DNA from: Escherichia phage HK3
Sequence record: PP526765
Reading direction: 5' to 3' (one strand)
Length of the DNA: 64,000 bases
The notes under the pieces: model-generated
What the model saw: the letters and a program-made list of their open reading frames with translations, nothing else
Told to the model about the DNA's origin: nothing
Databases searched by the model: none
Part shown: piece by piece, positions 5,578 to 37,968 of the stretch
Numbering within the stretch: position 1 is the stretch's first letter
Layout of the letters: each line of letters begins with the position of its first letter
Translations under genes and position numbers: made by a program

Positions 5578-5918
5578 AAATTATGAAAATCAAAGAAATG
5601 AACATCAATATTGTCTTAGAAGAACGATGGGAGAACATCAAGAAGCCTGAAAATGGTCATAAGTTCCTCAACAAAATCTTAGTAGCAGCTAAAGAAGAAC
5701 TGACTGGCAAGGTTGCAGCAGCAATCACAATAAAGGTCTGTGTAAAAGGTCTTCCAGACAATCACCAATTTGCACTTGACGAGTTTAAAGAAAGCTTCTA
5801 CAATCCAAACAAACAGATGCTTGAAAGTAACTTTGCAGTATCTACAAGCATCGTTCATGACAGAAGCTTTATCCTTTACAAGAATATGAGAGGTGAGTCA
5901 TGCAAGCATATTGGATAG
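5571..5918 (+). CDS. hypothetical protein (115 aa)
   Basis: ORF track; overlaps previous stop (coupled). Confidence 0.5.
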   Translation: MVKIMKIKEMNINIVLEERWENIKKPENGHKFLNKILVAAKEELTGKVAAAITIKVCVKGLPDNHQFALDEFKESFYNPNKQMLESNFAVSTSIVHDRSFILYKNMRGESCKHIG

Positions 5919-6076
5919 AAATTTTACTGTCACTTGGTAGTATAGCAGTATTTGTTTACCTTCTTTGTAAGTACTATGCAGAACACAAAAAATGTGACTT
6001 CTGTAATGGAGAAGGCTATACAAGAGCAGGTTGTTGCCCTATGTGTGGCGGTTCTGGTAAAATGTTTAATAAGTAA
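5900..6076 (+). CDS. small (58 aa) membrane protein with C-terminal CxxC..CxxC zinc ribbon
   Basis: ATG at 5900 after GAGAGGTGAG; hydrophobic N-terminus; CDFCNG...CCPMCGG; below the 60-aa track cutoff. Confidence 0.35.
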   Translation: MQAYWIEILLSLGSIAVFVYLLCKYYAEHKKCDFCNGEGYTRAGCCPMCGGSGKMFNK

Positions 6077-6104
6077 TTTAACAGTAAACTAAGAGGAAAG
6101 TATT

Positions 6105-14595: not shown

Positions 14596-14802
14596 ATGAT
14601 TTACAGCCGTGAATTGATGGTCACAACTAACGTTAACACAAAGGTAAAACGTTTTTATATGCAAGTATGCGGCGCATGGCGTAGAATATCAGAATCTGAC
14701 TATTGCAACTATGTAGAAACGGCTATTAATTCTAATTGCTATCTTACAAAGAATACAAAGCGACATATAAAACAGACAGCGGTTTACTATTACGATATAT
14801 AA
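14596..14802 (+). CDS. array small ORF 1 (68 aa)
   Basis: ATG 8 nt after TAGGAGA in conserved cassette. Confidence 0.5.
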   Translation: MIYSRELMVTTNVNTKVKRFYMQVCGAWRRISESDYCNYVETAINSNCYLTKNTKRHIKQTAVYYYDI

Positions 14803-14892
14803 AAAGTACTTTACAGGGGGCTTAAAAGCTGATATCTTAAGCCCCAGATAAAGAACTTTACCACATTAACCTTAAACTAGGAGATTCAAAAA

Positions 14893-15273
14893 ATGGCATA
14901 TCGTGCACCTAAATTCATCAATAAAGACAACTTCCGCAACGCACTGGAAAAATCACTTGATGAGAATTTTACAGGTCAGATTATTGTTGTTCACGCATTC
15001 AATTTTAAGTATGATATTAACGGGAACAGAATCAACCATTACACGGCAACCATGTTAGATGGTACACTATCAAGTGAAAAAGCTGTACTGAATGCACTTG
15101 CAGGACGTGGCAAAAACCTGATAAAATGCAATAAGAGACGTTATCAGGGCGGCGCATATGGTTATGATGACGCTGTTTACCATCTTGAAAATATGGGCTA
15201 TCAGGTGGAAAAAGCTGGGGTCTCTCAAATAATCGGCAGTGACGGCTATGTGACAATTTTCAAAATTAACTAA
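14893..15273 (+). CDS. array small ORF 2 (126 aa)
   Basis: conserved cassette upstream. Confidence 0.55.
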   Translation: MAYRAPKFINKDNFRNALEKSLDENFTGQIIVVHAFNFKYDINGNRINHYTATMLDGTLSSEKAVLNALAGRGKNLIKCNKRRYQGGAYGYDDAVYHLENMGYQVEKAGVSQIIGSDGYVTIFKIN

Positions 15274-15363: not shown

Positions 15364-15621
15364 ATGGCTATTATCAAAAACGTTACAATCCCTGCAAAAA
15401 CTCGTGATGACGCTCGCGTTATGGCTAAAAAGTTATGCGGAAAAGTGGTTGACAACGGAAAAAAATCTGCTGTAAGATGGGGTGTAAAGGTTGATAAATG
15501 TTTAACCTTAAAACGTAATTCAAACAACCTTTTTAAAGGTGTAAAATCACTCGGTAAAGTGAACGTTTTTACCAAAAAAGGCTATAAAATGCACTTATCA
15601 TTAACTTGCAATTTAATCTGA
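15364..15621 (+). CDS. array small ORF 3 (85 aa, basic)
   Basis: conserved cassette upstream. Confidence 0.5.
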   Translation: MAIIKNVTIPAKTRDDARVMAKKLCGKVVDNGKKSAVRWGVKVDKCLTLKRNSNNLFKGVKSLGKVNVFTKKGYKMHLSLTCNLI

Positions 15622-15711
15622 TAAAGTACTTTACATGGGGCTTAAAAGCTGATATCTTAAGCCCCAGATAAAGAACTTTACCACTAAATCCTTAAACTAG
15701 GAGATTCTAAA

Positions 15712-16008
15712 ATGAAATTATCGAATAACGTTCGTGAAAATCTAAGCAAATTACTCAATAAAATCGATTTTATTGAGACCTCAAGAAATACTCATGCGGT
15801 TATGGAATGGATACACGGCAAAATAAAAGGCCGTCGTGTGGTGATTTGCTTATGGAATAGTTGCAGGGAGTATAAAAAACCTGTATTACAAATTAATGTT
15901 TATGATAATACTTTTAAAAGCCCTGTAAAGTCTAAAAGTGACTTATTAGAATCTTATGAGATAACTTTAAATGGTAAGGTATCACGTAAAGAGGAAACAC
16001 CATGTTAA
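15712..16008 (+). CDS. array small ORF 4 (98 aa)
   Basis: conserved cassette upstream. Confidence 0.5.
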   Translation: MKLSNNVRENLSKLLNKIDFIETSRNTHAVMEWIHGKIKGRRVVICLWNSCREYKKPVLQINVYDNTFKSPVKSKSDLLESYEITLNGKVSRKEETPC

Positions 16009-17292: not shown

Positions 17293-17496
17293 ATGGCTAC
17301 TATCAACGGTTTAAACATTGAAACTACTCACATCAAAGATATTAAAGTCGGTGATACAGTCCTTTTTCACGGCGTAGAAAAAACCGTTACGGCGAAAGAC
17401 ATCAAAGAGGATTCTTTCATGGGTCGGTCTCTCTTCGGTGATTCGTATTGCTTAGGTTACCGTGCAGTTTTAAAAGTTGTAAAAAATAATAAATAA
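17293..17496 (+). CDS. array small ORF 8 (67 aa)
   Basis: type B cassette upstream. Confidence 0.5.
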   Translation: MATINGLNIETTHIKDIKVGDTVLFHGVEKTVTAKDIKEDSFMGRSLFGDSYCLGYRAVLKVVKNNK

Positions 17497-17583
17497 AGTA
17501 CTTTACAAGGGGCTTATAGTTCGATAAAGTAAGCCCCAGATAAAGAGCTTTACCACTAAATCCTTAAACTAGGAGATTCAAAA

Positions 17584-18126
17584 ATGAAATGCTTTCACGG
17601 TACTACTCAAGAAAATTTTGTCAACCTGATTAATAACGGTGATAAGCCATCAGGCGCATGGAATTGTTCGGATATGGATGGGAATTTTTACGTTTATCCA
17701 GAAAATAAAATCTATGGTGACGATGAGGAAGAAATAGTCTCTGAAGGTATCCAGCAAGCTCTGGGCAATGCCGCTATCACCGCAGCTTTCCAGATGAAAA
17801 CTCAAAACATTGTTATCTTGGAACTTGATATTCCAGAAGATGAGTTAAATGATGATTATTCTTGCGATAATATGTCTGGCGTGGCAAGTTTTACAGAATA
17901 TTTCGATTTAAACTGGATTAAAAAGGTTTACACCACTGAATTCAATGCCATGTTTTCGCCATTTTGTCTTCCTTCACTGGATAACCCGAATTTAAACTAT
18001 ATTGATGAGTCTCTGGAACTTCTCGCTAAAAGTGTTCAGCAATCAGACAGTATTCAGGTTTTTTGTGACATCATGGACACACTGACGGGAAACATCGCAG
18101 AAAGAGATTTAAAGGGCTTTTTCTAA
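17584..18126 (+). CDS. array small ORF 9 (180 aa, acidic)
   Basis: type A cassette upstream. Confidence 0.55.
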   Translation: MKCFHGTTQENFVNLINNGDKPSGAWNCSDMDGNFYVYPENKIYGDDEEEIVSEGIQQALGNAAITAAFQMKTQNIVILELDIPEDELNDDYSCDNMSGVASFTEYFDLNWIKKVYTTEFNAMFSPFCLPSLDNPNLNYIDESLELLAKSVQQSDSIQVFCDIMDTLTGNIAERDLKGFF

Positions 18127-18192: not shown

Positions 18193-18426
18193 ATGCTTAC
18201 AACCGTTTACCTCATCCTTTCCATTTGTAACGGTCATTCATGCGATTTTAAAGGGCTTGAAGAATTTACAGGGAGTAAAGAAAATGCTATTCAGGTTTGC
18301 CAGATAGCAAGACAAGACTACCCCACCAGTGATGATATACAATGCTATTTTAAGACAGAAGACAGCGACGGCGTTTATTTTGACAGCGTTGATGGTCAAT
18401 ATGAAATTATCATAGAAAAAGACTAG
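18193..18426 (+). CDS. array small ORF 10 (77 aa)
   Basis: preceded by hairpin AGCCCCTTCTAGGGGCT and AGGAGG Shine-Dalgarno. Confidence 0.5.
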   Translation: MLTTVYLILSICNGHSCDFKGLEEFTGSKENAIQVCQIARQDYPTSDDIQCYFKTEDSDGVYFDSVDGQYEIIIEKD

Positions 18427-18516
18427 ACAAGCCTGATAGAAATCTGTAAATTGTCAATCAACGGGAGGTAATGACCTCCCAACGAAGTAAAACCCTTAAA
18501 CTAGGAGATTCAAAAA

Positions 18517-18858
18517 ATGGCTTATGTAACTGTAATTACCAATAAACCGGATTCATCTTGGTCAACTCAAGTAAGTGATAAGATGACACCTATGCAGTGC
18601 CTAAAATACTTTGAGCAATGGAATAAAGGCGAGGATATCAGCCCCTTTCAAGTGATGCAGATTATCCATACAGACAACGAAGGGATTAAAACGGTTTTAA
18701 ATAGTGAGTACTATGTAACCAGATTTGAAACGAGATGTAAAACGATGAAACTATTACGCGAATCCGGTTATCCTCATATTGCCGCGCTAATCTGGGATGA
18801 TTTGCTAAAAAATCAGCGTATCAGCTACGTAAAACCTGAAAAAATATTCATCAGTTAA
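18517..18858 (+). CDS. array small ORF 11 (113 aa)
   Basis: type B cassette upstream. Confidence 0.55.
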   Translation: MAYVTVITNKPDSSWSTQVSDKMTPMQCLKYFEQWNKGEDISPFQVMQIIHTDNEGIKTVLNSEYYVTRFETRCKTMKLLRESGYPHIAALIWDDLLKNQRISYVKPEKIFIS

Positions 18859-19080
18859 TCAATAACTTACAAAAAACTTTCAAAAAAGTATTGACAACAC
18901 CCCTTGACATTGGTAACTTTGTTCGAGGGGGTTTATCTTAAAGGGATTCACTTAAAAGATTTCTTTAAAGATAAGCTTAAAAAATTGCTTGCAATCAGAT
19001 ATCAAAACAAGTAAATTACTAATCAACGGGAGGGATAACCCCCCCCACTAAGTAAAACCCTTAAACTAGGAGATTCTAAA

Positions 19081-19611
19081 ATGAACAAATTTCAAGCTAT
19101 CAACTATATTCGTTCCGTCAATGTCATGTCAAAACCTGTAAAAGATACGTATGAATTTCGTTGCAATGGTGTGCATTTTGCGACCATCACCAAATCAGAA
19201 AACGGGGCTTATTACGTTCATCGCCGTAATGTTGCAACCGTTGTAGTCTCTCATTTTATGCAAGCTGTCGCGGAACTTCTCCCGATGTTTTTGGGTCTTT
19301 ACTTGGATGAGTGTAAGCACATTCACAATCACGTTAAAAACCTTTTAAACAGTTATAAAATGGCTTACGAGCGTTCAATCAAGTACTTAAACAAGTTTTA
19401 CAACGCACCTGAAAATACTGTATCAATGGCCTATGCTGAAAATGGTGAGTTAGTGAGTCTCTTCGAAGTGGAAGAAATCAAGCTGTACGATTTACTCCCT
19501 AGCGGTTACACTAAGACACTGGGAGAAGGTTTGTCTTTCAATATCAAGAATTTAGAAAAAACTTTAAAAGATATTGAAAAAGATATTGACGAGACAATCA
19601 AAAATCTGTAA
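19081..19611 (+). CDS. array small ORF 12 (176 aa)
   Basis: type B cassette plus extra TTGACA promoters at 18890-18920. Confidence 0.55.
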   Translation: MNKFQAINYIRSVNVMSKPVKDTYEFRCNGVHFATITKSENGAYYVHRRNVATVVVSHFMQAVAELLPMFLGLYLDECKHIHNHVKNLLNSYKMAYERSIKYLNKFYNAPENTVSMAYAENGELVSLFEVEEIKLYDLLPSGYTKTLGEGLSFNIKNLEKTLKDIEKDIDETIKNL

Positions 19612-19679
19612 ATTGTCAATCAACGGGGAGGGAATGACCTTCCCCACTAAGTAAAATCCTTAAACTAGGAGTTATCAAG

Positions 19680-19943
19680 ATGGAAAACGTAGAATTAACC
19701 ACACTTTTACAAATCGCAACCGACAAAGAAAACGTAGCATTATTACACCGCATTGAAAGCGATTTGTTCAATGGTGAAATCATCAAAGAGTCTTACGAAG
19801 TTGTCGGATTCAAAGATGGTAAAACATTTGGATTCTTTGACCTCGACAAATGCAACGCTGTTACAAATTACGATGTTTTATCTTGTGAGATTCTTACAAA
19901 ATACAACGAAAAAAGGCTTGCAACATACGCCAACATGCAGTAA
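19680..19943 (+). CDS. array small ORF 13 (87 aa)
   Basis: type B cassette upstream. Confidence 0.5.
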   Translation: MENVELTTLLQIATDKENVALLHRIESDLFNGEIIKESYEVVGFKDGKTFGFFDLDKCNAVTNYDVLSCEILTKYNEKRLATYANMQ

Positions 19944-20296: not shown

Positions 20297-20323
20297 AGCC
20301 CCTTTCCAATAGGGGCTTTTTTA
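20297..20323 (+). terminator. rho-independent terminator closing the array
   Basis: AGCCCCT-TTCCAAT-AGGGGCT hairpin plus TTTTTT; a second GGGGCT...AGCCCC hairpin just upstream. Confidence 0.65.
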
Positions 20324-20329
20324 CGTCTC

Positions 20330-21890
20330 ATCAAATCCCTTTCCTTTCCCTTTCCAGAATCTATCTCATACCTTAAAAAGCAATAACTCTATAGCTTACT
20401 CTATAGCCTTTTATTAAATCAACTTAAATATAAGCCCATAACCCGAAAGGGAAGGGCAACCGTTTAAACGCTCTATAAAGCCCTATAACGGCCTTATTAA
20501 CATAACTTAAGGGATTGCATTACCTAACCCTTAAAAGCCCTTTATAAAGCTTTCTAGGGGCTTAAAAGAGCCTTAAAAGAATCTTATAAGGGTGTAAGCT
20601 TTATCATCTCGTTAGTTATCTTGTGAACTACTAAAAAGGGCTTGTCAGTGTCTTAAAAGTATGTTATAGGGGCTATAAAGTTGCTTAAAAGTTGCTTAAA
20701 AGTTACGTAAATGCTAGCCCCCTTAACATTTTCTTAACAATTTCTTAACAAACCCTACATAGTTATGCTTTCAAGACACTTGTTAGTAACTTGTTAGCCC
20801 CTTGTTAAATCTCTGTTAAGACCACGTAAAAGCTTTGTAAGAGCCTTTGACATAGCCTTTAAAGCTCCTGTAAAGCCCTATAAAGAGCTTTCTACATAGT
20901 TGGGGTGGAATTACTAGAAAGAGACTAAAAAGAGCTTATAAGGAGCTATAGAGAGCTTTTAAAAGGGCTGTTTAAAAGGTCACTAAGAAAGGAAAGGGAA
21001 CGATAAGACCAGAGATAGTGACCATGTTAATAGATTGTTAAAAAGGTTAAACACTTGTTAGGAACTTGTTAATTATCTTAACAAAATAACTCTTTAAAAT
21101 TAACTATTTAGCCCTTGTTAGTCATCTGTTAATCCTCTGTAAAGACTATGTATCAACTGTTAAGAAACTGTTACCCTCTTGTTAAAACTGTTAAGAATCT
21201 GTTAAGTCCTCTGAAGAGATGTTAAAAGGTTGTAGCAACTGTTAAGAGATTGTTAATGATATTTTAAAATTTTGCAAAGGGGGTGTTAAGGAGCTGTTAA
21301 GGGCTACCAAGCAGATATACATCCTAGACAGATATTTTTGAGTTCCTTCAAAGACCCTAAAAAATGACTTGATAGTCCTATTTTATAAAAATTTTAAAAT
21401 TCTGAATAATTACCTAGACAGTCTTTTAAAAATACAGGCATAAACAGGCTTATAAGATACCTTGTTAATACCGTGTTAGACCTTGTGAGATAAGGTCTGT
21501 AAAGATATTCCTGTTAAGTTTGTTAAAACAGCCTATATAGAGGCTTAGTAATACCTAGTGAACACCTATAGAGGGTAACATAGTTGACCTAATGGGTTAC
21601 TGTTAAGTAACACAGGTAACCTAGAGATTAAGAGGTGTATAGGGGCTTCTAAGAGGGTGTAGAGGTATGGTTAAGGTGATTGTATAGGTTGTTAAGAAGG
21701 CTTGTTAGAGGGCTGTTTAGAAGGGCTATACAGATGGCTATTAAGACCACTAGATAGATACTAAGATACTATATAGTACTATATAACTATATAGAGAGTA
21801 AGCTTAAGAAGGTTGTTAAGAAGGGTAGATATTTTATTCACATATGCTGGTGACCCAGAGGTTGGGACAACCGATGAAATTTTATAAAAA
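20330..21890. repeat. 1.6 kb ORF-free field dense in degenerate 8-mers (CTGTTAAG, CTTGTTAR, CTTAAAAG, CTATAAAG) with AT-rich palindromes
   Basis: no ORF of 60 aa or more on either strand; CTGTTAAG-type units recur about every 11 bp in 21150-21270; ACTATATAGTACTATATA palindromes at 21760-21800. Confidence 0.75.
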
Positions 21891-21892
21891 TT

Positions 21893-21925
21893 AAAAAGCC
21901 CCCAATTAAGGAGGCTCTTAAGATA
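21893..21925 (-). terminator. terminator for the minus-strand block
   Basis: minus-strand reading gives AGCCTCC...GGGGGCT hairpin followed by a T-run. Confidence 0.45.
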
Positions 21926-21927
21926 TT

Positions 21928-28495: not shown

Positions 28496-28887
28496 AGATA
28501 ATCCTCTTGTCTTCTGTAATTTTGAAAGAACAGGTACAGACCAATTTCAGAGGATGAATAGTAGAGCAACTCTACCCTTTTTGATTCCTTACAGTGATTG
28601 GTATTTTTACCTTTCTTCGGGTTGTTTGATTTTCTCATTAAGTCTCCTTTGTAGAACAAGGCAGACCTACAGCTTTAAGTAAGATGGTACAGTAATCCAT
28701 ACAACAAGTCAAGAACTATTGCAAGTTAAAAAAGTTGTTGACAAAGTACTTGACAAGGTGTAGGCTTATAAATACTTAGAAGATAACTTAAAAGGTTCCT
28801 CTAAAAAGGCTATTTAAACAGATATCTTTCTGGATATCTATCTTTTATCTTAAAAGCCTTTTAAGAGGTCTTATAAGAGGCATACCA

Positions 28888-29338: not shown

Positions 29339-30754
29339 ATGAGCAAGTTATTTAAACATGCGCACCTTCATGCAGGTCGAACTGAAAATGGTGCTGTAAA
29401 CCATACTTCATCAATGTCTGCTCTGGTAGACTTCTACAAAGCCGCTGGTTCAAGCCGTAGCAATGTAGAAATCTTACCAGACCTGTTCTACAAAGCTTTG
29501 CGTGAGGATGTTGATGTTGCAGTTCGTATTTTACTGCATATGCGAGATGTACGAGAAGGTATGGGCGAGCGTAAAGCTTTCCGAACTGTTTTGCTTCAAG
29601 CGATTGAAGATAAGGTTTTAGAACCTACACAGGTTCTTCGCATTATGGATAAGATTGCAGAACTTGGTCGTTTTGATGACTTCAAAATCTTTGTAGGTAC
29701 TCGTTTTGAGACAGACGCCTTCAAACATTTAGAAGCAGCATTACTAGACCCTGCAACAGCAGGTTTAGCAGCTAAGTGGTTGCCACGAGTAAAACCACGC
29801 CACAAACAGTTTGTAAAACGTTTCTGCAAGTTTGCAAACTTAAGTGAGAAGGAGTATCGCACACTGTTGTCTGCACTATCTGATACGGTTGAGCAAAAAA
29901 TCTCTGCTAATGAGTTTGGTAAGATTGACTACAGCAAGATTCCTTCACTAGCTGCTGCACGTTACCAAAAACTCTTTAACCGTAAAGATGGTGAACGTTA
30001 CAAAGCTTACATCGAGTCGCTCTCAAAGGGTGAGGCTAAGATTAATGCTGGTGCTGTTTACCCATACGATGTGATTAAATCTATTAAGTATGGTAATGCA
30101 GATGTTGCTAATGAGCAGTGGAAAGCACTTCCAAACTGGATGGCAGAAGGTGAAAACATCTTGTGTATGACTGATGTTTCAAGCTCAATGTCTTGGGTGA
30201 ATCTTGGTTCAATCACTGCCCTTGATATTGGTGTATCACTTGCTTTGTATGTAGCAGAACGCAATACTGGTTGCTTTAAAGATGAGTTAATGGTTTACTC
30301 AACAAACCCTCACTTCATTGAACTGAGTGGTGATTTACGAAACCGTCATCGTCAGGTGATGCGTCACGTTGAATATGGCTCAACTAACTTACAAGCAGCT
30401 TTTGACCGTATTCTTGAAATAGGTAAGAGAAACAACTTGACTCAGAAAGATATGCCAAGTAAGCTTATTATCTTCTCTGATATGGAGTTTAATCAGGTTG
30501 ATGGTGCAAATGGTCATACAAACTTTGAAGCAATTCAGAGTAAGTACAAAAAAGCCGGATACGAAATGCCACAACTAGTATTCTGGTACTTAGCAAACCG
30601 TAATGGTACTTGCGAAGTATCTGTTAAGGATAATGGTGTAGCAATGGTATCAGGGTTCTCTCCAGCCACTTTAAAAGCTCTACTTGGTGGTGAGAAGTTT
30701 GACCCAATCAGCGTAATGCTCAAAGCAGTAATGATTGACCGTTATATCTGGTAA
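29339..30754 (+). CDS. vWA-domain protein with MIDAS motif; candidate Ro60/TROVE-like (Rsr-like) RNA-binding protein
   Basis: C-terminal vWA signature ILCMTDVSSSMS (DxSxS); about 470 aa with helical N-terminal region; sits directly upstream of the tRNA/ncRNA cluster; TROVE assignment is inference. Confidence 0.4.
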   Translation: MSKLFKHAHLHAGRTENGAVNHTSSMSALVDFYKAAGSSRSNVEILPDLFYKALREDVDVAVRILLHMRDVREGMGERKAFRTVLLQAIEDKVLEPTQVLRIMDKIAELGRFDDFKIFVGTRFETDAFKHLEAALLDPATAGLAAKWLPRVKPRHKQFVKRFCKFANLSEKEYRTLLSALSDTVEQKISANEFGKIDYSKIPSLAAARYQKLFNRKDGERYKAYIESLSKGEAKINAGAVYPYDVIKSIKYGNADVANEQWKALPNWMAEGENILCMTDVSSSMSWVNLGSITALDIGVSLALYVAERNTGCFKDELMVYSTNPHFIELSGDLRNRHRQVMRHVEYGSTNLQAAFDRILEIGKRNNLTQKDMPSKLIIFSDMEFNQVDGANGHTNFEAIQSKYKKAGYEMPQLVFWYLANRNGTCEVSVKDNGVAMVSGFSPATLKALLGGEKFDPISVMLKAVMIDRYIW

Positions 30755-30772: not shown

Positions 30773-30801
30773 TTGACAATGTGTTTGATACCCTTTAATA
30801 T
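30773..30801 (+). promoter_or_regulatory. promoter TTGACA-N17-TAATAT with flanking inverted repeat GGGTAT / ATACCC
   Basis: read directly. Confidence 0.5.
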
Positions 30802-30863
30802 GTTCTACATAGAAACGAGATGAGAGCTTTTCTAAGATACTGAAAAATATTTTAAAAAAGTTC

Positions 30864-30893
30864 TTGACAACCACTAAAAAATAATGTTAAAGT
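30864..30893 (+). promoter_or_regulatory. promoter TTGACA-N18-TAAAGT for the tRNA cluster
   Basis: about 25 nt upstream of the first tRNA; flanking inverted repeat ACCACT / AGTGGT. Confidence 0.45.
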
Positions 30894-30919
30894 GGTTACA
30901 TAGAGTTTGAAAAGTTTAT

Positions 30920-30996
30920 CTCTGTTTAGCTCAGCTTGGTAGAGCGTTCCGTTTGGGGCGGTAAGGCCGGAGGTTCAAGTCCTCCAACAGAGACCA
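30920..30996 (+). tRNA. tRNA-Pro (anticodon UGG)
   Basis: 7-bp acceptor CTCTGTT/AACAGAG, D-stem GCTC/GAGC, T-arm GGAGG-TTCAAGT-CCTCC, encoded CCA. Confidence 0.6.
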
Positions 30997-31003
30997 AATT
31001 AAT

Positions 31004-31081
31004 GTTCCAGTAGACAAAATGGTATAGTCACCACTCTTTCAAAGTGGATATTTGAGGGTTCAAATCCCTTCTGGAACGCCA
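31004..31081 (+). tRNA. tRNA-Glu (anticodon UUC)
   Basis: perfect acceptor GTTCCAG/CTGGAAC, anticodon stem CCACT/AGTGG, loop CTTTCAA, T-loop TTCAAAT, CCA. Confidence 0.6.
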
Positions 31082-31087
31082 GTTTTG

Positions 31088-31162
31088 ACAGAAGACCAAT
31101 TACAGCAAACTTAATCTTATTCATCTGAAGGTAAATCGGACAAAGAAGAGATTTGGTCTGGT
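31088..31162 (+). ncRNA. structured spacer element a (conserved 5' CAGAAGACCAATTACAGCAA, 3' TTGGTCTGG)
   Basis: 7-bp long-range stem AGACCAA/TTGGTCT; one of four sibling elements. Confidence 0.45.
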
Positions 31163-31172
31163 CATTAAGAAT

Positions 31173-31249
31173 TGCGGGTATAGAGAAAGGGCGTCTCACA
31201 TGTCTCATTAGCATGGTATCGGCAGGTTCGACTCCTGCACCCGCCTCCA
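31173..31249 (+). tRNA. tRNA with CAU anticodon (elongator Met or Ile-lysidine type)
   Basis: loop CTCATTA, D-stem GAGA/TCTC, T-arm GCAGG-TTCGACT-CCTGC, CCA; mismatch at acceptor pair 1:72. Confidence 0.5.
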
Positions 31250-31255
31250 AATTTA

Positions 31256-31320
31256 CAGAAGACCGTTTACAGCAATATTTATTAAATTTTTAGCGGAAAA
31301 ATTGAAAGATACGGTCTGGT
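31256..31320 (+). ncRNA. structured spacer element b (5' CAGAAGACCGTTTACAGCAA, 3' ACGGTCTGG)
   Basis: stem AGACCGT/ACGGTCT; GT/AC replaces the AA/TT of elements a and c. Confidence 0.45.
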
Positions 31321-31333
31321 AATACTAAACATG

Positions 31334-31410
31334 GTTAGGAAGCACATAAGGTATGTGCGGTCGCCTGTTAAGCGAATGGCACAGGGTTCGAATCCCTGAC
31401 TAACCGCCAA
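31334..31410 (+). tRNA. tRNA-Asn (anticodon GUU)
   Basis: D-stem GCAC/GTGC, loop CTGTTAA, T-arm CAGGG-TTCGAAT-CCCTG, CCA. Confidence 0.55.
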
Positions 31411-31481
31411 ATTTAGGAGAGAAGCGATTGCTCACCGATTTGTAAGGTGCAAGTCCTTAGCCTGAATAGAATAATAAAATG

Positions 31482-31569
31482 TGTCGTTATCCCGTAGATG
31501 GTAGCGGTGGGGACTGTAAATCCCTTGTCATTGAGACTCGGTAGGTTCGACTCCTACACGGCACACCAA
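31482..31569 (+). tRNA. tRNA-Tyr (anticodon GUA), long variable arm
   Basis: acceptor GTGTCGT/ACGGCAC, anticodon stem GGGGA/TCCCT, loop CTGTAAA, 88 nt, T-loop TTCGACT, CCA. Confidence 0.6.
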
Positions 31570-31630
31570 TTTTGAGAGGGCTATTTAGCCCCTCCCTTAA
31601 AGAGTTCTTACGAGTACCCTTTAAAGGAGC

Positions 31631-31704
31631 AGAAGACCAAATACAGCAAGTTACTTAAAATTTCAAGCCAATTCAATTTTGAAAAATTTAAAACTTGGTC
31701 TGGC
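31631..31704 (+). ncRNA. structured spacer element c (5' CAGAAGACCAAATACAGCAA, 3' TTGGTCTGG)
   Basis: stem AGACCAA/TTGGTCT. Confidence 0.45.
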
Positions 31705-31717
31705 TCAACAAATTTAC

Positions 31718-31848
31718 AGAAGACCGTTTACAGCAAAACTTAAACAATCTATTTCTCGGTAAAGAAAAGGTGAAGGTTCGATTCCTTCACTCGGCAGATG
31801 TCGAGTTGGTGTAATGGTAGCACTTAAGATGATAAACAACGGTCTGGT
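31718..31848 (+). ncRNA. structured element d with circularly permuted tRNA-like module (candidate YrlA-like Y RNA)
   Basis: order: 5' stem strand AGACCGT (31722) - T-arm GAAGG-TTCGATT-CCTTC (31773-31789) - acceptor-like hairpin ACTCGGC-AGAT-GTCGAGT (31790-31807) - D-arm GTGT-AATGGTA-GCAC (31810-31824) - 3' stem strand ACGGTCT (31840-31846). Confidence 0.5.
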
Positions 31849-31849
31849 A

Positions 31850-31985
31850 ATTATCTTTGCAGTAGCTTATGTGGCTAATTATATCGTCCCATGAGTGCCG
31901 ATGAATTTCCTTAGCATGATTCTAGATTAGCTTAATAGGAAATGACTCTACAGACCCTTTAGCAAGGTCTGCGTAGGTTACTGCA
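31850..31985 (+). ncRNA. element enclosed by a perfect 16-bp inverted repeat (AATTATCTTTGCAGTA ... TACTGCAAAGATAATT) around 104 nt
   Basis: arms at 31850-31865 and 31970-31985; interior has further hairpins (AGACC...GGTCT); no ORF. Confidence 0.5.
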
Positions 31986-31999
31986 AAGATAATTTAATA

Positions 32000-32075
32000 G
32001 AAGTGTAGCAGAATGGTGATGCGGCAGACTTTTAATCTGATAGGTGATGGGTTCGAATCCCTCCACTTCTACCAA
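32000..32075 (+). tRNA. tRNA-Lys (anticodon UUU)
   Basis: perfect acceptor AGAAGTG/CACTTCT, loop CTTTTAA, T-loop TTCGAAT, CCA; T-stem only 3 clean pairs. Confidence 0.5.
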
Positions 32076-32079
32076 TATG

Positions 32080-32156
32080 GTTCAGTCGCAGATAAGGTAA
32101 TGCAGGGGTCTCATAAGCCCTATGAATGTGGGTTCGATTCCCATCTGAGCCTCCAA
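32080..32156 (+). tRNA. initiator-like tRNA-fMet (anticodon CAU)
   Basis: anticodon stem-loop GGGCTCATAACCC with three G:C pairs closing the loop; T-arm GTGGG-TTCGATT-CCCAT; CCA. Confidence 0.55.
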
Positions 32157-32158
32157 TG

Positions 32159-32234
32159 CTGTGAAAGCACATATGGATGTGCATTCGGCTGATAACCGAA
32201 AGGAAGAAGGTTCGAATCCTTCTCACAGTACCAA
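32159..32234 (+). tRNA. tRNA-Ile (anticodon GAU)
   Basis: D-stem GCAC/GTGC, anticodon stem TTCGG/CCGAA, loop CTGATAA, T-arm GAAGG-TTCGAAT-CCTTC, CCA. Confidence 0.65.
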
Positions 32235-32249
32235 TTTCAATAAAGTTGT

Positions 32250-32278
32250 TGACATTGAGATGTGACCACTTTATAGTA
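32250..32278 (+). promoter_or_regulatory. internal promoter TTGACA-N17-TATAGT inside the tRNA cluster
   Basis: read directly. Confidence 0.55.
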
Positions 32279-32481
32279 ACCTTAGTTTTCGTTGCGTAGC
32301 GTCTATTTTGCAAATTTAAAATAAATGCAAACGACAATGTTTTTCTGGCAGTAGCTTGATAGGCTAAACACCAGTGAGGTCTTCCAATCCCTCATCAAAG
32401 AATTTGGCGTACTAGCCCACGGTATGATTAATAAGGTGGGCATCTTTAAGGGTTTTTTAAGAGAGTCTTTAAAGATTAATG

Positions 32482-32558
32482 CACCCTTAGTTCAACTGGA
32501 CAGAACAAATGACTTCTAATCATTAGGTTACAGGTTCGAATCCTGTAGGGTGTGCCAA
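32482..32558 (+). tRNA. tRNA-Arg (anticodon UCU)
   Basis: D-stem GTTC/GAAC, anticodon stem AATGA/TCATT, loop CTTCTAA, T-arm ACAGG-TTCGAAT-CCTGT, CCA. Confidence 0.65.
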
Positions 32559-32700
32559 ATAGTTAGCAGATTGCTTAGACGACCTTATCGGGTCTCCGTG
32601 TAGGGAGGTGGTCTGTATCTCATGTTTTCCAGAACATGTAAATAATCTGAGAAGGGGCTTTACAGTGTTGAGATAATACGGTAAGCTTCGAATTATAGTA

Positions 32701-32783
32701 TGGGACGATGTTAAGACTCTAAGGCATGAGCAACGGCTTCCAACACCGTTTCAAAGGGATTCAACTCCTCCGTCCCATGCCAA
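32701..32783 (+). tRNA. atypical tRNA-like gene (possible anticodon CCA, Trp); irregular D and T arms
   Basis: perfect 7-bp acceptor ATGGGAC/GTCCCAT plus G-CCA, but T-stem has only 3 clean pairs and the D-region is 26 nt. Confidence 0.35.
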
Positions 32784-32796
32784 AGTCTTATTAGGG

Positions 32797-32886
32797 GTAG
32801 GTAGCGGCTAATGGTAGCCAAACTGTCTTGAAAACAGTTGCCACTGTAGAGATACGGTGAGGGTTCGACTCCTTTACTTACCGCCT
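32797..32886 (+). tRNA. tRNA-Ser (anticodon UGA), long variable arm
   Basis: anticodon stem ACTGT/ACAGT, loop CTTGAAA, 20-nt variable arm, T-loop TTCGACT; CCA not fully encoded. Confidence 0.55.
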
Positions 32887-33040
32887 AATAAGATTTAAAG
32901 CCAAGCTTCATTCGGATGTTGCTTTGGTATCCCTCGTGTATTGTCGTACACACTGATAAAGCACCTAGTAGGTGTCACGGAGAAGAGATAATATCAAGCT
33001 CTCCAAAGGTTCTAGTCACCGGATTAAACAAGACTATGCA

Positions 33041-33063
33041 AAGACCTGTTTAGGTCTTTTTAG
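33041..33063 (+). terminator. short hairpin AAGACC-TGTTTA-GGTCTT followed by TTTTT inside the tRNA cluster
   Basis: read directly; may instead be a processing signal. Confidence 0.35.
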
Positions 33064-33141
33064 AGGGCTTCTAAGGTTATTACAGCTTGTTGTGGAACCT
33101 TGTTGCTTAGGTTCTTAGAAGTTCTCTAAAAAGATTTAATG

Positions 33142-33218
33142 CACCTATAGCCCAACTGGTAGAGGCAGCAGACTTAGAATCTGCTCAGTGTGAGTTCGAA
33201 TCTCTCTAGGTGTACCAA
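33142..33218 (+). tRNA. tRNA with anticodon UAG (Leu by anticodon; short variable arm)
   Basis: 6-bp anticodon stem AGCAGA/TCTGCT, loop CTTAGAA, T-loop TTCGAAT, CCA; 77 nt. Confidence 0.45.
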
Positions 33219-33225
33219 ATTAATG

Positions 33226-33301
33226 CAGGTGTAGCAAAATGGTTATGCGGCTGACTCTTAATCAGTAAGACGATGGTTTCAATTCCCTCCACCTGTACCA
33301 G
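33226..33301 (+). tRNA. tRNA-Lys (anticodon CUU)
   Basis: loop CTCTTAA; T-arm paralogous to the Lys-UUU gene; CCA. Confidence 0.45.
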
Positions 33302-33307
33302 ACATTG

Positions 33308-33383
33308 GGGATGTAGTTTACATGGTTAAAACATAAGTTTTGCAAACTTAAGTACAGGGTTCAATTCCCTGCTTCTCCACCAA
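33308..33383 (+). tRNA. tRNA-Ala (anticodon UGC)
   Basis: G3:U70 pair in acceptor stem (Ala identity), D-stem GTTT/AAAC, anticodon stem TAAGT/ACTTA, loop TTTGCAA, CCA. Confidence 0.7.
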
Positions 33384-33389
33384 TTAGTG

Positions 33390-33464
33390 CATCCATAGTT
33401 TAAACGGGAAAATTACAGTCTTCCAAACTGAGGTTGAGGGTTCGATTCCCTCTGGATGCTCCAA
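33390..33464 (+). tRNA. tRNA-Gly (anticodon UCC)
   Basis: perfect acceptor GCATCCA/TGGATGC, loop CTTCCAA, T-arm GAGGG-TTCGATT-CCCTC, CCA. Confidence 0.65.
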
Positions 33465-33470
33465 ATAATG

Positions 33471-33547
33471 CTGCTTTCGTATAATTGGCTATTACACATC
33501 CCTTGTAAGGATGGAAATGCAGGTTCGAGTCCTGTGAGCAGCACCAA
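33471..33547 (+). tRNA. tRNA-Thr (anticodon UGU)
   Basis: anticodon stem CATCC/GGATG, loop CTTGTAA, T-loop TTCGAGT, CCA. Confidence 0.6.
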
Positions 33548-33551
33548 TTCA

Positions 33552-33637
33552 GAGGTCAAGTGAAAGACCGCTGGTGTCAACTGAAGACCGTAACAAATTC
33601 CACGGAGTTGAGTTAGCGGCACAACTTCAGACCTCTT
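33552..33637 (+). ncRNA. structured spacer element closed by AGAGGTC / GACCTCT stem, containing a GAAGACCGT motif
   Basis: 7-bp inverted termini; interior shares GAAGACCGT with elements a-d. Confidence 0.35.
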
Positions 33638-33642
33638 TCATA

Positions 33643-33717
33643 CTCGCTTAGTTTATATGGTAAAACACCACCCTTACAAGATGAAGAAAAAGGTTCAAGT
33701 CCTTTAGTGAGTACCAT
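33643..33717 (+). tRNA. tRNA-Val (anticodon UAC), weak anticodon stem
   Basis: D-stem GTTT/AAAC, loop CTTACAA, perfect T-arm AAAGG-TTCAAGT-CCTTT, CCA. Confidence 0.4.
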
Positions 33718-33718
33718 G

Positions 33719-33796
33719 TTCCAATATCCCAATTGGCAGAGGATGCAAGCTCAAACCTTGTACTAGTGACGGTTCGAATCCGTCTTGGAACACCAA
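33719..33796 (+). tRNA. tRNA with anticodon CAA (Leu by anticodon; short variable arm)
   Basis: perfect acceptor GTTCCAA/TTGGAAC, anticodon stem GCAAG/CTTGT, loop CTCAAAC, T-arm GACGG-TTCGAAT-CCGTC, CCA. Confidence 0.5.
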
Positions 33797-33910
33797 TTTT
33801 GGGAGAGCACTATGAGTGATAAGTCAATAGCAAAAAAGTTTAGAGCGTCATACCTAAACAGACGTAAAAACAAAGATTGTGAAAAACTGTATGGTGTTCT
33901 TGTAGGTAAG

Positions 33911-33986
33911 CAGGATTAGTTCAAATGGATAGAGCAGCAGTCTACGAAGCTGTTAATAGGGGTTCGAATCCCTTATCCTGCGCCAA
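33911..33986 (+). tRNA. tRNA-Arg (anticodon ACG)
   Basis: perfect acceptor GCAGGAT/ATCCTGC, loop CTACGAA, T-loop TTCGAAT, CCA. Confidence 0.65.
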
Positions 33987-34004
33987 TTTTAAGAGGCTAT
34001 TTAG

Positions 34005-36345: not shown

Positions 36346-36366
36346 TTCTATTTGCGGAGGTGCTTA

Positions 36367-37968
36367 ATGGACTTAAATGCTGTTAAGCAGAAGCGAGTGG
36401 AAGATGTTAGGAAAGTCCTAGCTGGAGAGTTGGGGCTTTCTGATGAAGTAAAAGAAATTATCAAATCATTCGGTAAAGACCCCTCTAAATTCCTTCCAAC
36501 TCAAATTCTGACTTTATTAAGATACACACCAGACCAAGTTAGACTTATCTTCAAATTGATGACTGATAAGAACTATGTAGCCCCTCAGCCGGGTTCTCAA
36601 GAGGTGTTTTTAAATACTAATGCTGACTTGGTTTTATATGGTGGTGCTGCTGGTGCTGGTAAAACTGCTGCATTGTTAATGGACTCTTTAAGGTTTATTG
36701 AAGACCCTAACTATAATGCTGTATATTTCCGTCGAAATACAACACAGTTACAAGGTGGTTTATGGCCTGCTGCAAAGAAACTATTTGGTAAGTTTGGTGG
36801 GGTTCCTCACGAGCAGAAGATGACTATCACATTCCCTTCTGGGGCAACTATCAAGTTCACCTACCTAGAACTTGAAAAGCACGCTGAAGGTCATCAGGGT
36901 ATTGAATACTCAGCTATTTACTTTGACGAAGGTACACACTTCTCTGCTTCACAGATTTCATACCTACAGACTCGTCTGCGTTCTGGTGCTGAAGGTGACT
37001 CATACATGAAGATTTCCATGAACCCAGATAGAGACCACTTCATTTATGATTGGGTAGAACCCTTCTTAGATGAAGAAGGTTACCCAGACCCTGAGAAGTG
37101 CGGTCGTATTCGTTGGTATGTTATGAATGATGGTGTGATGGTTTCTGATTGGGAAAGAGACAAGATTCTTGAAATGTTCCCTCTTGAGATTCCTCAGACA
37201 TACACCTTCATCTCTGGTACGATTGATGATAACCCAATTCTTGACTTCTTAGAACCTAAATATCGTGGTAAGTTGGAAAACAACACACCTGTAAACGTTG
37301 CAAGACTTCGTTTCGGTAACTGGAAGGCTCGTGCAGAAGGTTCAAACTATTGGCAAAGACAATGGTGTGAGATTGTTGATTCACTCCCAGAAGATGTGTT
37401 TGATGTCAGAGCATGGGACTTAGCAGCGACTTTACCATCTGAAATTAACCCTAACCCAGACTGGACAGCGGGTGTTAAGATGGGTAAATCTAAAAAAGAC
37501 GGTTGCTATTATATCATTGATGTAGTAAGATTTAGAGATAGACCCTCTGGAGTCGAAACACAAATTAATTTGACTGCTGAAAGTGACGGTAAGCGAACTG
37601 GTATTTTTATCCCTCAAGACCCAGGCGCTGCTGGTAAATCCTATGCAACATCCCTCATCAGGAAACTTGCCGAGAAAGGTTATCGCGCAAGAGCTAAACC
37701 AACAAATAAAGATAAAGTTACCCGCTTTGCGGGATTTTCTGCTGCTTCGGAAGCTGGACTTGTAAAAGTCTTGAGAGGCAGTTGGAACGAAGCTTACTTT
37801 CAAGAACTTGAAGGCTTTTGTGGTGATGGTAAAACGAAAGATGACCAAGTGGATGCTACCAGTGATGCTTTCAACAGTCTTAACGAAGTTAAATTATTCA
37901 AGCCACCATCAATGGGTGCTCACACAGATTTAGTGAGAGGAAACCCATATGAGGGGCTTAGACGTTGA
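36367..37968 (+). CDS. terL: terminase large subunit
   Basis: Walker A LYGGAAGAGKT; size about 530 aa; GCGGAGGTG Shine-Dalgarno before ATG 36367 (track ORF starts at TTG 36352). Confidence 0.8.
   Translation: MDLNAVKQKRVEDVRKVLAGELGLSDEVKEIIKSFGKDPSKFLPTQILTLLRYTPDQVRLIFKLMTDKNYVAPQPGSQEVFLNTNADLVLYGGAAGAGKTAALLMDSLRFIEDPNYNAVYFRRNTTQLQGGLWPAAKKLFGKFGGVPHEQKMTITFPSGATIKFTYLELEKHAEGHQGIEYSAIYFDEGTHFSASQISYLQTRLRSGAEGDSYMKISMNPDRDHFIYDWVEPFLDEEGYPDPEKCGRIRWYVMNDGVMVSDWERDKILEMFPLEIPQTYTFISGTIDDNPILDFLEPKYRGKLENNTPVNVARLRFGNWKARAEGSNYWQRQWCEIVDSLPEDVFDVRAWDLAATLPSEINPNPDWTAGVKMGKSKKDGCYYIIDVVRFRDRPSGVETQINLTAESDGKRTGIFIPQDPGAAGKSYATSLIRKLAEKGYRARAKPTNKDKVTRFAGFSAASEAGLVKVLRGSWNEAYFQELEGFCGDGKTKDDQVDATSDAFNSLNEVKLFKPPSMGAHTDLVRGNPYEGLRR

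Follow-up and report, generated by a model that had tools for sequence, protein, structure and literature searches.

What purpose does a gene-free field of 1.6 kb serve in a phage genome? The question is raised by a 64,000-nucleotide stretch of Escherichia phage HK3 (sequence record PP526765; "the window" in the following means this whole stretch), in which the gap at 20321–21927 is bounded by the stop codons of two converging genes, the last of the rightward block (20257) and the first of the leftward block (21928). An initial annotation had described the gap as free of open reading frames (ORFs), and this was borne out, the sole ORF of at least 30 amino acids (21649..21750, − strand) coding for just 33. 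What had been overlooked there is the nature of the field, which becomes apparent from the records of related phages: it almost certainly represents the terminus, or concatemer junction, of a Felix O1-type genome and is made up of the right-end flank, a direct terminal repeat (DTR) and the left-end flank (Table 1). Terminus and DTR position are already known for the genus. No published account was found in the searchable literature of the phased unit arrays that fill the field, of the inverted elements at its DTR boundaries or of their conservation across genera, and these features appear to be undescribed; in some GenBank records, short 'repeat_region' features are all that is marked.

The assignment to the Felix O1 type follows from the database matches of a 1.56-kb query from the field, which met 256 phage records with 60–94% identity, nearly all of them phages of Escherichia, Salmonella, Shigella or Citrobacter that belong to Felixounavirus or are related to this genus. 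Judged by these similarities, the window is about three quarters of the genome of a Felix O1-type myovirus (ca. 87 kb, 39% G+C). The lineage belongs to the Ounavirinae, and all relatives are annotated as lytic myoviruses. Hypervariability or absence of the region in close relatives, which the initial annotation had named as an argument against its proposal, was not observed; the region is present in about 260 relatives with 73–94% identity.

The genome ends are marked by several of these records. In MW481326 (phage Pr103Blw) a 'short direct terminal repeat region' is annotated at 1–581 and 87841–88421; the two copies are identical and align to 20717–21308 of the window. An exact 580-bp repeat at both ends of PP886229 (phage E9) maps to the same interval, and the annotated 618-bp 'DTR' of OL656108 (phage UAB_69) aligns to 20715–21310. 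Record starts or ends exactly at the DTR coordinates were also found for D4, I14.1, H12, ZX4221, ECP2307, pEP20, GE_vB_7A and NJ12. Altogether, at least ten related GenBank records begin or end exactly at 20717/21308, and two contigs of SPT-1 break at 20712. Around the DTR, Pr103Blw and UAB_69 show the same ORF-free gap and the same flanking genes. Most of the approximately 260 related records are opened elsewhere, and among those inspected few annotate a DTR.

Physical evidence comes from UAB_Phi87, whose ends were mapped experimentally: Bal31 digestion for limited times and run-off sequencing gave a DTR of 608 bp (PMC4837284). PhageTerm analysis of Pr103Blw yielded a DTR of 581 bp (PMC8303462), and for Felix O1 short terminal repeats were deduced by comparing the size from pulsed-field gel electrophoresis with that of the sequence (PMC3185647). 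The large terminase (TerL) encoded in the window is 99.6% identical to its UAB_Phi87 counterpart and belongs to a clade associated with short DTRs; the UAB_Phi87 enzyme was placed in a Felix O1-type DTR cluster (PMC4837284). Only a single DTR copy is seen in the window because the latter is in concatemer or circular-assembly form. It counts against the assignment that the ends of HK3 are transferred from relatives of about 90% identity.

On this basis the left genome end would lie at 20715 (DTR start of UAB_69) or 20717 (record starts of Pr103Blw and E9) and the right end at 21308 or 21310. Both positions stand out in an alignment of the gap from eleven genomes of three genera, which are 77–94% identical to the window. 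With a value of 0.94 the interval 20708–20757 is the most conserved of the gap, and 21258–21357 reaches 0.91 in comparison to a mean of 0.83. At the left end the sequence ACGTAAA-G-TAGCCCCCTT-ACATT-TCTTAACAA is almost invariant, and at the right end TGTTAAGGGCTACCAAGCAGATATACA is identical in all eleven genomes. The left element TAGCCCCCTTAACA and the right element each occur in one exact copy in the 64 kb. Moreover, TGTTAAGGGCTA of the right element is an inverted copy of the left TAGCCCCCTTAACA, with the common form TAGCCC(CC)TTAACA. The resulting dyad brackets the DTR, as expected if one enzyme makes two cuts in opposite orientation. Genome ends at 20717/21308 together with their critical boundaries should be of help for annotation, phage engineering and the design of packaging-competent vectors.

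Length differences between relatives were observed close to both boundaries. In JH2, 24 bp are inserted within a few bases of the right one, on its outer side (aligned to ca. 21328), and Pr103Blw, Felix O1 and Silverhawkium each carry an insertion of 11 nt, i.e. one repeat unit, just outside the left one. The least conserved patch of the gap, 21558–21607 with 0.54, is located approximately at the site of the putative promoter P41 of the Felix O1 genome paper, so that P41 is not conserved. A scan of the gap for sigma-70 promoters gave 12 sites compared to 6.8 ± 2.6 expected, none of them convincing.

The second property of the field is its repeat content. Degenerate 8-mers packing the region, and their recurrence about every 11 bp within 21150–21270, had been reported in the initial annotation; motif enumeration and spacing autocorrelation confirm both statements and extend the phasing to nearly the whole gap. 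TGTTAAG occurs eleven times in the gap, where 0.3 copies are expected from the rest of the window. At the same reference rate, CTGTTAAG is found eight times (0.1 expected) and CTTAAAAG six times (0.2 expected), and the enrichment of short words over the remaining window amounts to 20- to 80-fold. Units were then counted as 8-mers with at least 7 of 8 matches to the seven consensus octamers CTGTTAAG, CTTGTTAA, CTTGTTAG, CTTAAAAG, CTATAAAG, CTGTAAAG and CTTATAAG. The gap contains 69 such units in forward orientation, compared to 12.4 ± 3.2 in Markov-1 random sequence, and successive units are spaced by 10–12 bp in 34 cases against 0.26 expected. Their density is 41 per kb in the gap and about 7 per kb elsewhere in the window. 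Over the whole gap the base autocorrelation at lag 11 is 0.398, significantly above the 0.275 obtained from 300 dinucleotide-preserving shuffles (z = 10.7), with harmonics at lags 21–22 and 31–33 and troughs at 5 and 16. If non-overlapping 200-bp segments across the 64 kb are ranked by their lag-11 signal, six of the ten strongest are located inside the gap, among them the top two (20666–20865 and 21107–21306).

Two types of units can be distinguished. A-type units read (C)TTGTTAG or CTGTTAAG, including the CTTGTTAG form; B-type units read CTTAAAAG, CTATAAAG, CTGTAAAG, CTTATAAG and also CTTTAAAG. Both share the skeleton C-T-N-W-W-A-A/G-G (CTNWWAAG-type). B-type units predominate in the right-end flank and in the middle of the DTR, A-type units in the remainder. 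The arrays are oriented, TGTTAR being present 27 times on the forward and five times on the reverse strand. The DTR starts with three reverse TTAACA units at 11-bp spacing (20722–20752), which are followed by forward units up to its end.

The same architecture is found beyond the genus. ORF-free gaps of 1.6–1.9 kb with a lag-11 z of 9–11 and TGTTAAG among the top words occur in four genera, namely Felixounavirus, Suspvirus (EP1), Mooglevirus (Sf14, Michonne, Silverhawkium) and Kolesnikvirus (Erwinia phage M7). M7 shares just 127 bp of detectable nucleotide similarity with the query. The M7 record nonetheless shows a DTR of 443 bp arranged as in the Felix type, reverse TTAACA units at the left boundary being followed by forward TGTTAAG units; the right boundary, GATTTTGCAAAGG...GGCCACTAAGTAGATATACA (also written GATTTTGCAAAGG...GGCCACTAA/GTAGATATACA), is recognisably homologous. 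The upstream flank of M7 uses a distinct B-type unit, TTCTAAG.

In the initial annotation the arrays were considered the signature of a protein array on one face of the DNA. Conservation is in line with this view: the positions of the TGTTA core score 0.89–0.92 in the eleven-genome alignment compared to 0.69–0.80 for adjoining spacer positions, and the motif persists across genera. The bound protein itself is a postulate. That the 11-bp phasing reflects intrinsically curved DNA was considered and rejected. Over the arrays, a wedge model calibrated with A-tract controls predicts 10–20° per 21 bp, an ordinary value given the 15 ± 2.7° averaged over the genome. A register for protein binding is hence a better reading of the phasing than a bend in the DNA. 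The sole clearly curved stretch (21300–21400, 25.7° per 21 bp) is predicted directly outside the right cut site.

Arrays of this kind might also arise as neutral products of slippage or unequal exchange in the terminal region, that is, as a phage 'satellite' that has no sequence-specific reader. The degeneracy of the units and the indels by multiples of 11 bp between relatives, such as the three left-flank insertions mentioned above, would be compatible with such an origin, and terminal repeats have been noted as recombination hot spots in T7 (bioRxiv 10.1101/2024.10.10.617714). This is contradicted by the higher conservation of the core positions relative to the spacers, by the TGTTAAG core, strand bias and 11-bp period being kept in four genera despite diverged surroundings, and by a conservation of the whole gap about as high as that of the neighbouring genes. 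The persistence of arrays with conserved cores in diverged genera argues against slippage as the whole story, and a purely neutral origin seems very unlikely to us.

The explanation that combines these observations, a terminal region whose arrays serve end recognition and packaging, is the one we favor and consider rather probable. As to the arrays in particular, the chances that they form a protein-binding platform for packaging appear about even. Polarity, spacing by one helical turn, redundancy and concentration around the DTR would fit such a directional, cooperative platform. In the proposed mechanism the large terminase would cut the concatemer at the two boundary elements bearing the inverted TAGCCC..TTAACA. 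With one repeat copy per junction, the cuts must be staggered across about 592 bp and filled in; staggered cuts on both sides of the single copy and subsequent fill-in synthesis would provide each genome with its repeat, as proposed for T7, where this is a long-standing model. The approximately 70 units on the same strand, one per helical turn, would offer redundant sites for an oligomerising DNA-binding protein. Acting as a small-terminase-like factor, this protein could mark the junction and its polarity and position the terminase. Terminators seal off the converging transcription units from the terminal field.

A packaging or partition-like role had already been among the proposals of the initial annotation, next to a replication origin and a putative decoy binding array. 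Its packaging part gains support, as the field holds the DTR and both genome ends, whereas its partition part does not: a centromere of the parC/parS type was rejected, since neither partition ATPase nor centromere-binding families were found in the flanking ORFs and the relatives are lytic.

Several findings weigh against the packaging platform. No small terminase could be recognized next to the TerL gene, where two upstream ORFs of 66 and 75 amino acids gave no match in Pfam, NCBIfam or the functional PHROGs; for UAB_Phi87, likewise, only a large terminase was identified (PMC4837284). The protein that would read the units is postulated and their status as binding sites putative. About 70 sites over 1.6 kb far exceed known terminase recognition sites, and the function of the analogous T7 arrays offers no guide. 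In the DTR of Pseudomonas phage Ab03 (Nankokuvirus), whose TerL is 40% identical and whose annotated terminal repeat has 771 bp, no 11-bp periodicity was found; phased arrays are thus neither general to nor required by this TerL clade. Finally, B-type units downstream of promoters at 18.9 and 28.8 kb point to a regulatory reader, instead or in addition.

Such a reader would be a phage, or possibly a host, regulator of the transcription or nucleoid type, and the units would be its sites rather than part of the packaging machinery. Silencing, insulation of convergent transcription, protection of entering DNA ends or timing of the early-to-late switch could be its purpose. Phased B-type units (CTTAAAG, CTTAAAAG, CTAAAAAG, CTTATAAG; 11–12 bp) are located directly downstream of sigma-70-like promoters (TTGACA...) at 18890–18990 and 28740–28880. 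The second set forms the leader of a gene for a DUF5681 protein, and in Erwinia phage M7, too, B-type units are situated upstream of this gene. Direct repeats with a 10–11 bp period are used by winged-helix proteins of the OmpR/PhoB type, and short TGTTAAG arrays lie beside promoters in unrelated uncultivated phages. However, the great majority of units are found in and around the DTR and not at promoters, as the densities given above illustrate. The layout, with reverse units at the left boundary and forward units thereafter, follows the DTR in Felix-type phages and in M7. In addition, the regulator itself is hypothetical, and the unit matches the PhoP or PhoB box only inexactly. We consider a purely regulatory meaning unlikely; regulatory and packaging roles of the units are not mutually exclusive.

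Another repeated element was observed upstream of early genes, where an intergenic module recurs at 14790–14900, 15610–15720, 17490–17590, 18420–18520, 19000–19085 and 19610–19685. It comprises a hairpin GGGGCTTAAAAG...CTTAAGCCCC, followed by AGATAAAGARCTTTACCAC and the conserved leader CCTTAAACTAGGAGATTCnAAAATG, and is the counterpart of 57-bp direct repeats reported with the Felix O1 genome.

Returning to the packaging platform, the DUF5681 protein is a conceivable reader of the units. The motif FKKGQSGNPxGRPKGSRNK at its N-terminus is invariant in 26 homologues, and the best PDB sequence match is the HMG-I(Y) AT-hook (PRGRPKGSKNKG). The protein is conserved in all Ounavirinae (296 phage records), with every annotation reading 'hypothetical', and searchable texts on DUF5681 were uninformative. 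Five or six phased B-type units are positioned just upstream of its gene (28776–28880); in M7, CTTAAAAG, CTTTAAAG and CTGTAAAG precede the orthologue (L091, ca. 1220–1260). The gene order DUF5681, tRNAs, TerL, portal is the same in Ab03 as in the window. AT-hooks bind in AT-rich minor grooves and discriminate little between bases. The AT-hook-like motif would accordingly read the minor groove once per turn, which would explain the degenerate W-rich cores and would fit the kept G/C edges and spacing.

Here as well, part of the evidence is unfavorable. The AT-hook match has an E value of 0.22, weak because the match is so short. The structural model, in which two long helices form a hairpin behind a disordered N-terminus, has a low mean pLDDT of 67, and a fold search with it gave no match at E ≤ 0.001. 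The DUF5681 protein is a weak lead, and its role as AT-hook reader doubtful. An extension of this idea, in which the arrays are the loading track of an unrecognised type of small terminase or end-recognition factor, over which an oligomeric AT-hook DUF5681 protein polymerises directionally for more than 1 kb, we also judge improbable. If true, the track of reverse TTAACA and then forward TGTTAA units, which recurs in unrelated uncultivated phages (L085 and the L026 family), would represent a nucleoprotein structure at the genome ends of many DTR phages that has so far gone undescribed, and SRL and SRR of T7 would find an explanation as well.

Downstream of the DUF5681 gene, a Ro60/TROVE-like protein (DUF2828, DUF7788, VWA) is encoded at 29339–30754 (+), and a stretch of about 3 kb (ca. 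30800–34000) that has no long ORFs and presumably is a tRNA cluster follows. In a study of phage Bas63 the Ro60/TROVE-like protein was proposed to work with tRNA-like or Y-like RNAs. The PhageMaP data for Bas63 targeted genes only, and the gap was not among the targets.

The initial annotation had further suggested a replication origin. In this case the field would be or contain the origin, with the units as iterons and the AT-rich segment 21330–21445 as unwinding element. Repeated oriented motifs do adjoin an AT-rich segment with predicted curvature (21309–21445), a single DnaA-box-like 9-mer is present at 21834–21842, and secondary origins of T7 adjoin its terminal arrays. Against this stands that no initiator or replication gene was found adjacent to the field, the flanking ORFs giving no family matches, and that DnaA-box-like 9-mers are at chance level across the window. 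The turn in GC skew occurs where transcription changes direction and provides no independent signal, and the best-conserved parts of the field are the presumed DTR cut sites. Typical iterons measure 17–22 bp and occur in 3–8 copies; 8-bp units at a period of 11 bp in about 70 copies are unlike them. Positive evidence for an origin did not emerge, and we regard this role as quite improbable.

AT-rich palindromes, which had been compared to a DNA-unwinding element, are indeed present. TATAG palindromes are located at 21765–21797, with CTATATAG at 21769 and 21787 and a further copy at 21533. Their function in unwinding is unsupported: their position is ca. 460 bp into the left-end flank, and they are short and highly conserved (0.93 for 21758–21807). 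The CTATATAG palindromes resemble binding sites of dimers rather than AT-rich 13-mers. The same flank contains GCTGGTGA (21846–21853), which shares seven of its eight positions with the Chi octamer of E. coli and is oriented opposite to what RecBCD entering from the nearby left end would meet.

The terminators proposed to converge on the gap could be located, with a hairpin on the + strand facing one on the − strand (Table 1). For the ORFs on either side of the gap no Pfam family was found, and their PHROG matches are all of unknown function. A structured non-coding RNA was considered as well and is unsupported, since cmscan of the gap against Rfam at E ≤ 1 gave two sub-threshold chance matches and no known family.

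Table 1. Features of the terminal field of phage HK3 and related genes in the window.
Feature	Position	Strand	Basis
Intrinsic terminator, closes rightward gene block	20297..20325 (hairpin 20297–20317)	+	7-bp GC-rich stem and T run
Right-end unique non-coding flank, upstream of DTR in concatemer	20321..20714	+	Homology to the stretch from last gene to right DTR in Pr103Blw
B-type units of right-end flank (CTATAAAG, CTTAAAAG, CTTATAAG), phased 10–12 bp	densest 20473–20702	+	Unit map; period-11 tandem-repeat rows
Left DTR boundary element, holds TAGCCCCCTTAACA (20715–20728) and three reverse TTAACA units	20700..20760	.	Record starts, conservation
DTR, 592 bp	20717..21308 (20715–21310 by UAB_69 annotation)	+	Annotated DTRs of relatives
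A-type units in DTR (CTTGTTAG, CTGTTAAG)	20779–20825, 21023–21075, 21114–21144, 21157–21256, 21283–21301	+	Unit map
B-type units in DTR (CTTTAAAG, CTGTAAAG, CTATAAAG, CTTATAAG)	20857–20985	+	Unit map
Right DTR boundary element, GATATTTTAAAATTTTGCAAAGG...TGTTAAGGGCTACC/AAGCAGATATACA	21258..21325	.	DTR ends of relatives, conservation
Left-end unique non-coding flank	21309..21893	+	Sequence, unit map
Forward units of left-end flank	21449–21530, 21600, 21688–21745, 21812	+	Unit map
Intrinsic terminator, closes leftward gene block	21894..21919 (hairpin 21919–21894)	−	Terminator-like hairpin
Candidate reader gene, DUF5681 protein, 123 amino acids	28888–29259	+	Pfam match; first gene of rightward late operon
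Large terminase (Terminase_6N/6C), expected to cut at boundary elements	36352..37968	+	Family match

Tracks similar to the TGTTAAG arrays were also encountered in uncultivated phage contigs of IMG/VR. The 165-kb contig IMGVR_UViG_3300021399_000107 (L085) contains an ORF-free field of about 1.8 kb (5765–7578), in which reverse TTAACA units (6150–6750) are followed by about 40 forward GTTAAG/TGTTAAA units at ca. 11 bp (6750–7330). This order, reverse then forward, equals that of the Felix O1-type DTR. The contig resembles the window neither in nucleotide nor in protein sequence and lacks an isolate-phage match. In a second family (L026, 7200–7560; also L064, L081 and L083) a non-coding stretch of about 600 bp is present, which in L026 carries eight reverse TTAACA and then five forward TGTTAA units and ends in TGTTAAGGGCTGCCC, which may be compared with TGTTAAGGGCTACC of the Felix-type right boundary. 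L026 further contains GGGGGCTAGC, which in reverse complement reads as the core of the Felix-type left boundary, and a TTGACA promoter and a gene come next; the stretch may mark a further genome terminus, or the resemblance may be coincidental. In IMGVR_UViG_3300042863_002604 (81 kb; L033, L042, L054, L069) pure tandem arrays of the 11-mer GAACTTGTTAA are present at no fewer than four separate places. Between the window and the IMG/VR contigs with TGTTAAG arrays no homology was found by blastn or tblastx, and these contigs are without isolate-phage match.

Among known systems, the DTRs of Felixounavirus phages (608 bp in UAB_Phi87, 581 bp in Pr103Blw, and that of UAB_69) agree with the window in locus, boundaries and size. 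Their published accounts give coordinates and length, and the searchable text of these accounts does not mention arrays, inverted boundaries or cross-genus conservation. The 771-bp terminal repeat of Ab03 (NC_026587, 1–771) contains dispersed ATTGTGTAAC repeats, forward then reverse, with five forward CCATTGTGTAAC-like motifs in the first half and two reverse ones in the second.

Terminase sites built from repeats are familiar from the R sites of lambda cosB, the pacL/pacR boxes of SPP1 and the pac hexamers of P1. Like these, the HK3 field has short repeats flanking the presumed cleavage position and a bent or AT-rich segment beside it (21300–21400). The ring model of small terminases, with one DNA-binding domain per helical turn, bears a likeness to the array, too. 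The cosB and pac sites, however, comprise 3–7 repeats over 100–200 bp and belong to cohesive or headful ends; the HK3 field, by contrast, combines some 70 units with exact DTR ends, and no small terminase was recognized. In plasmid R1, two blocks of five 11-bp iterons in parC are bound cooperatively by the small protein ParR in a superhelical nucleoprotein complex. The tandem direct repeats at 11 bp are similar, but the resemblance is architectural only, since no gene for a ParR-like protein or partition ATPase was found nearby and a lytic phage of the HK3 type has no need for segregation. With the HMGA AT-hook the DUF5681 protein shares P-x-G-R-P-K-G-S-R-N-K, matching PRGRPKGSKNK in PDB 2EZD; unlike HMGA it is phage-encoded and has a single motif followed by a helical hairpin, and the match is short and weak.

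By architecture, the closest analogue of the field is the concatemer junction of phage T7, the HK3 arrays being an analogue of SRL and SRR and not a member of that system. Dunn and Studier reportedly described in 1983 a 160-bp terminal repeat of T7 with short-repeat arrays of CCTAAAG (SRL, SRR). A direct reading of NC_001604 yields 24 forward and no reverse CCTAAAG-type units in the 160-bp repeat and both flanks, with a dominant spacing of 13 bp (lag-13 z = 9.1). Common to both phages are a short exact DTR, units of 7–8 bp on one strand within and flanking the repeat, a non-coding junction and a similar unit sequence (C-Y-T-A-A-A-G). The period differs, being 13 bp in T7 and 11 bp, i.e. one helical turn, in HK3 with its units CTGTTAAG, CTTGTTAG, CTTAAAAG and CTATAAAG. 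The scale in T7 is three times smaller, with about 24 units in 0.7 kb compared to about 69 in 1.6 kb. T7 genes are read inward from the left end, whereas transcription in HK3 converges on the ends. Further, T7 is a podovirus (Autographiviridae) of unrelated lineage with its own RNA polymerase and a recognized small terminase.

We know of no function assigned to the T7 terminal repeat arrays since 1983. In an insertion screen of T7 most terminal loci were dispensable, while positions 142 and 162 at the repeat boundary were essential (bioRxiv 10.1101/2024.10.10.617714), which matches the expectation for redundant arrays and critical cut sites. Little is understood of the way in which terminases of phages with short DTRs locate the genome ends and duplicate them. 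In this respect the Felix O1-type field would present a much larger and more regular version of the T7 architecture, with sharply conserved predicted cut sites and a candidate reader, in phages that are common, easily grown, used in the biocontrol of Salmonella and E. coli and, as exemplified by Bas63, genetically tractable.

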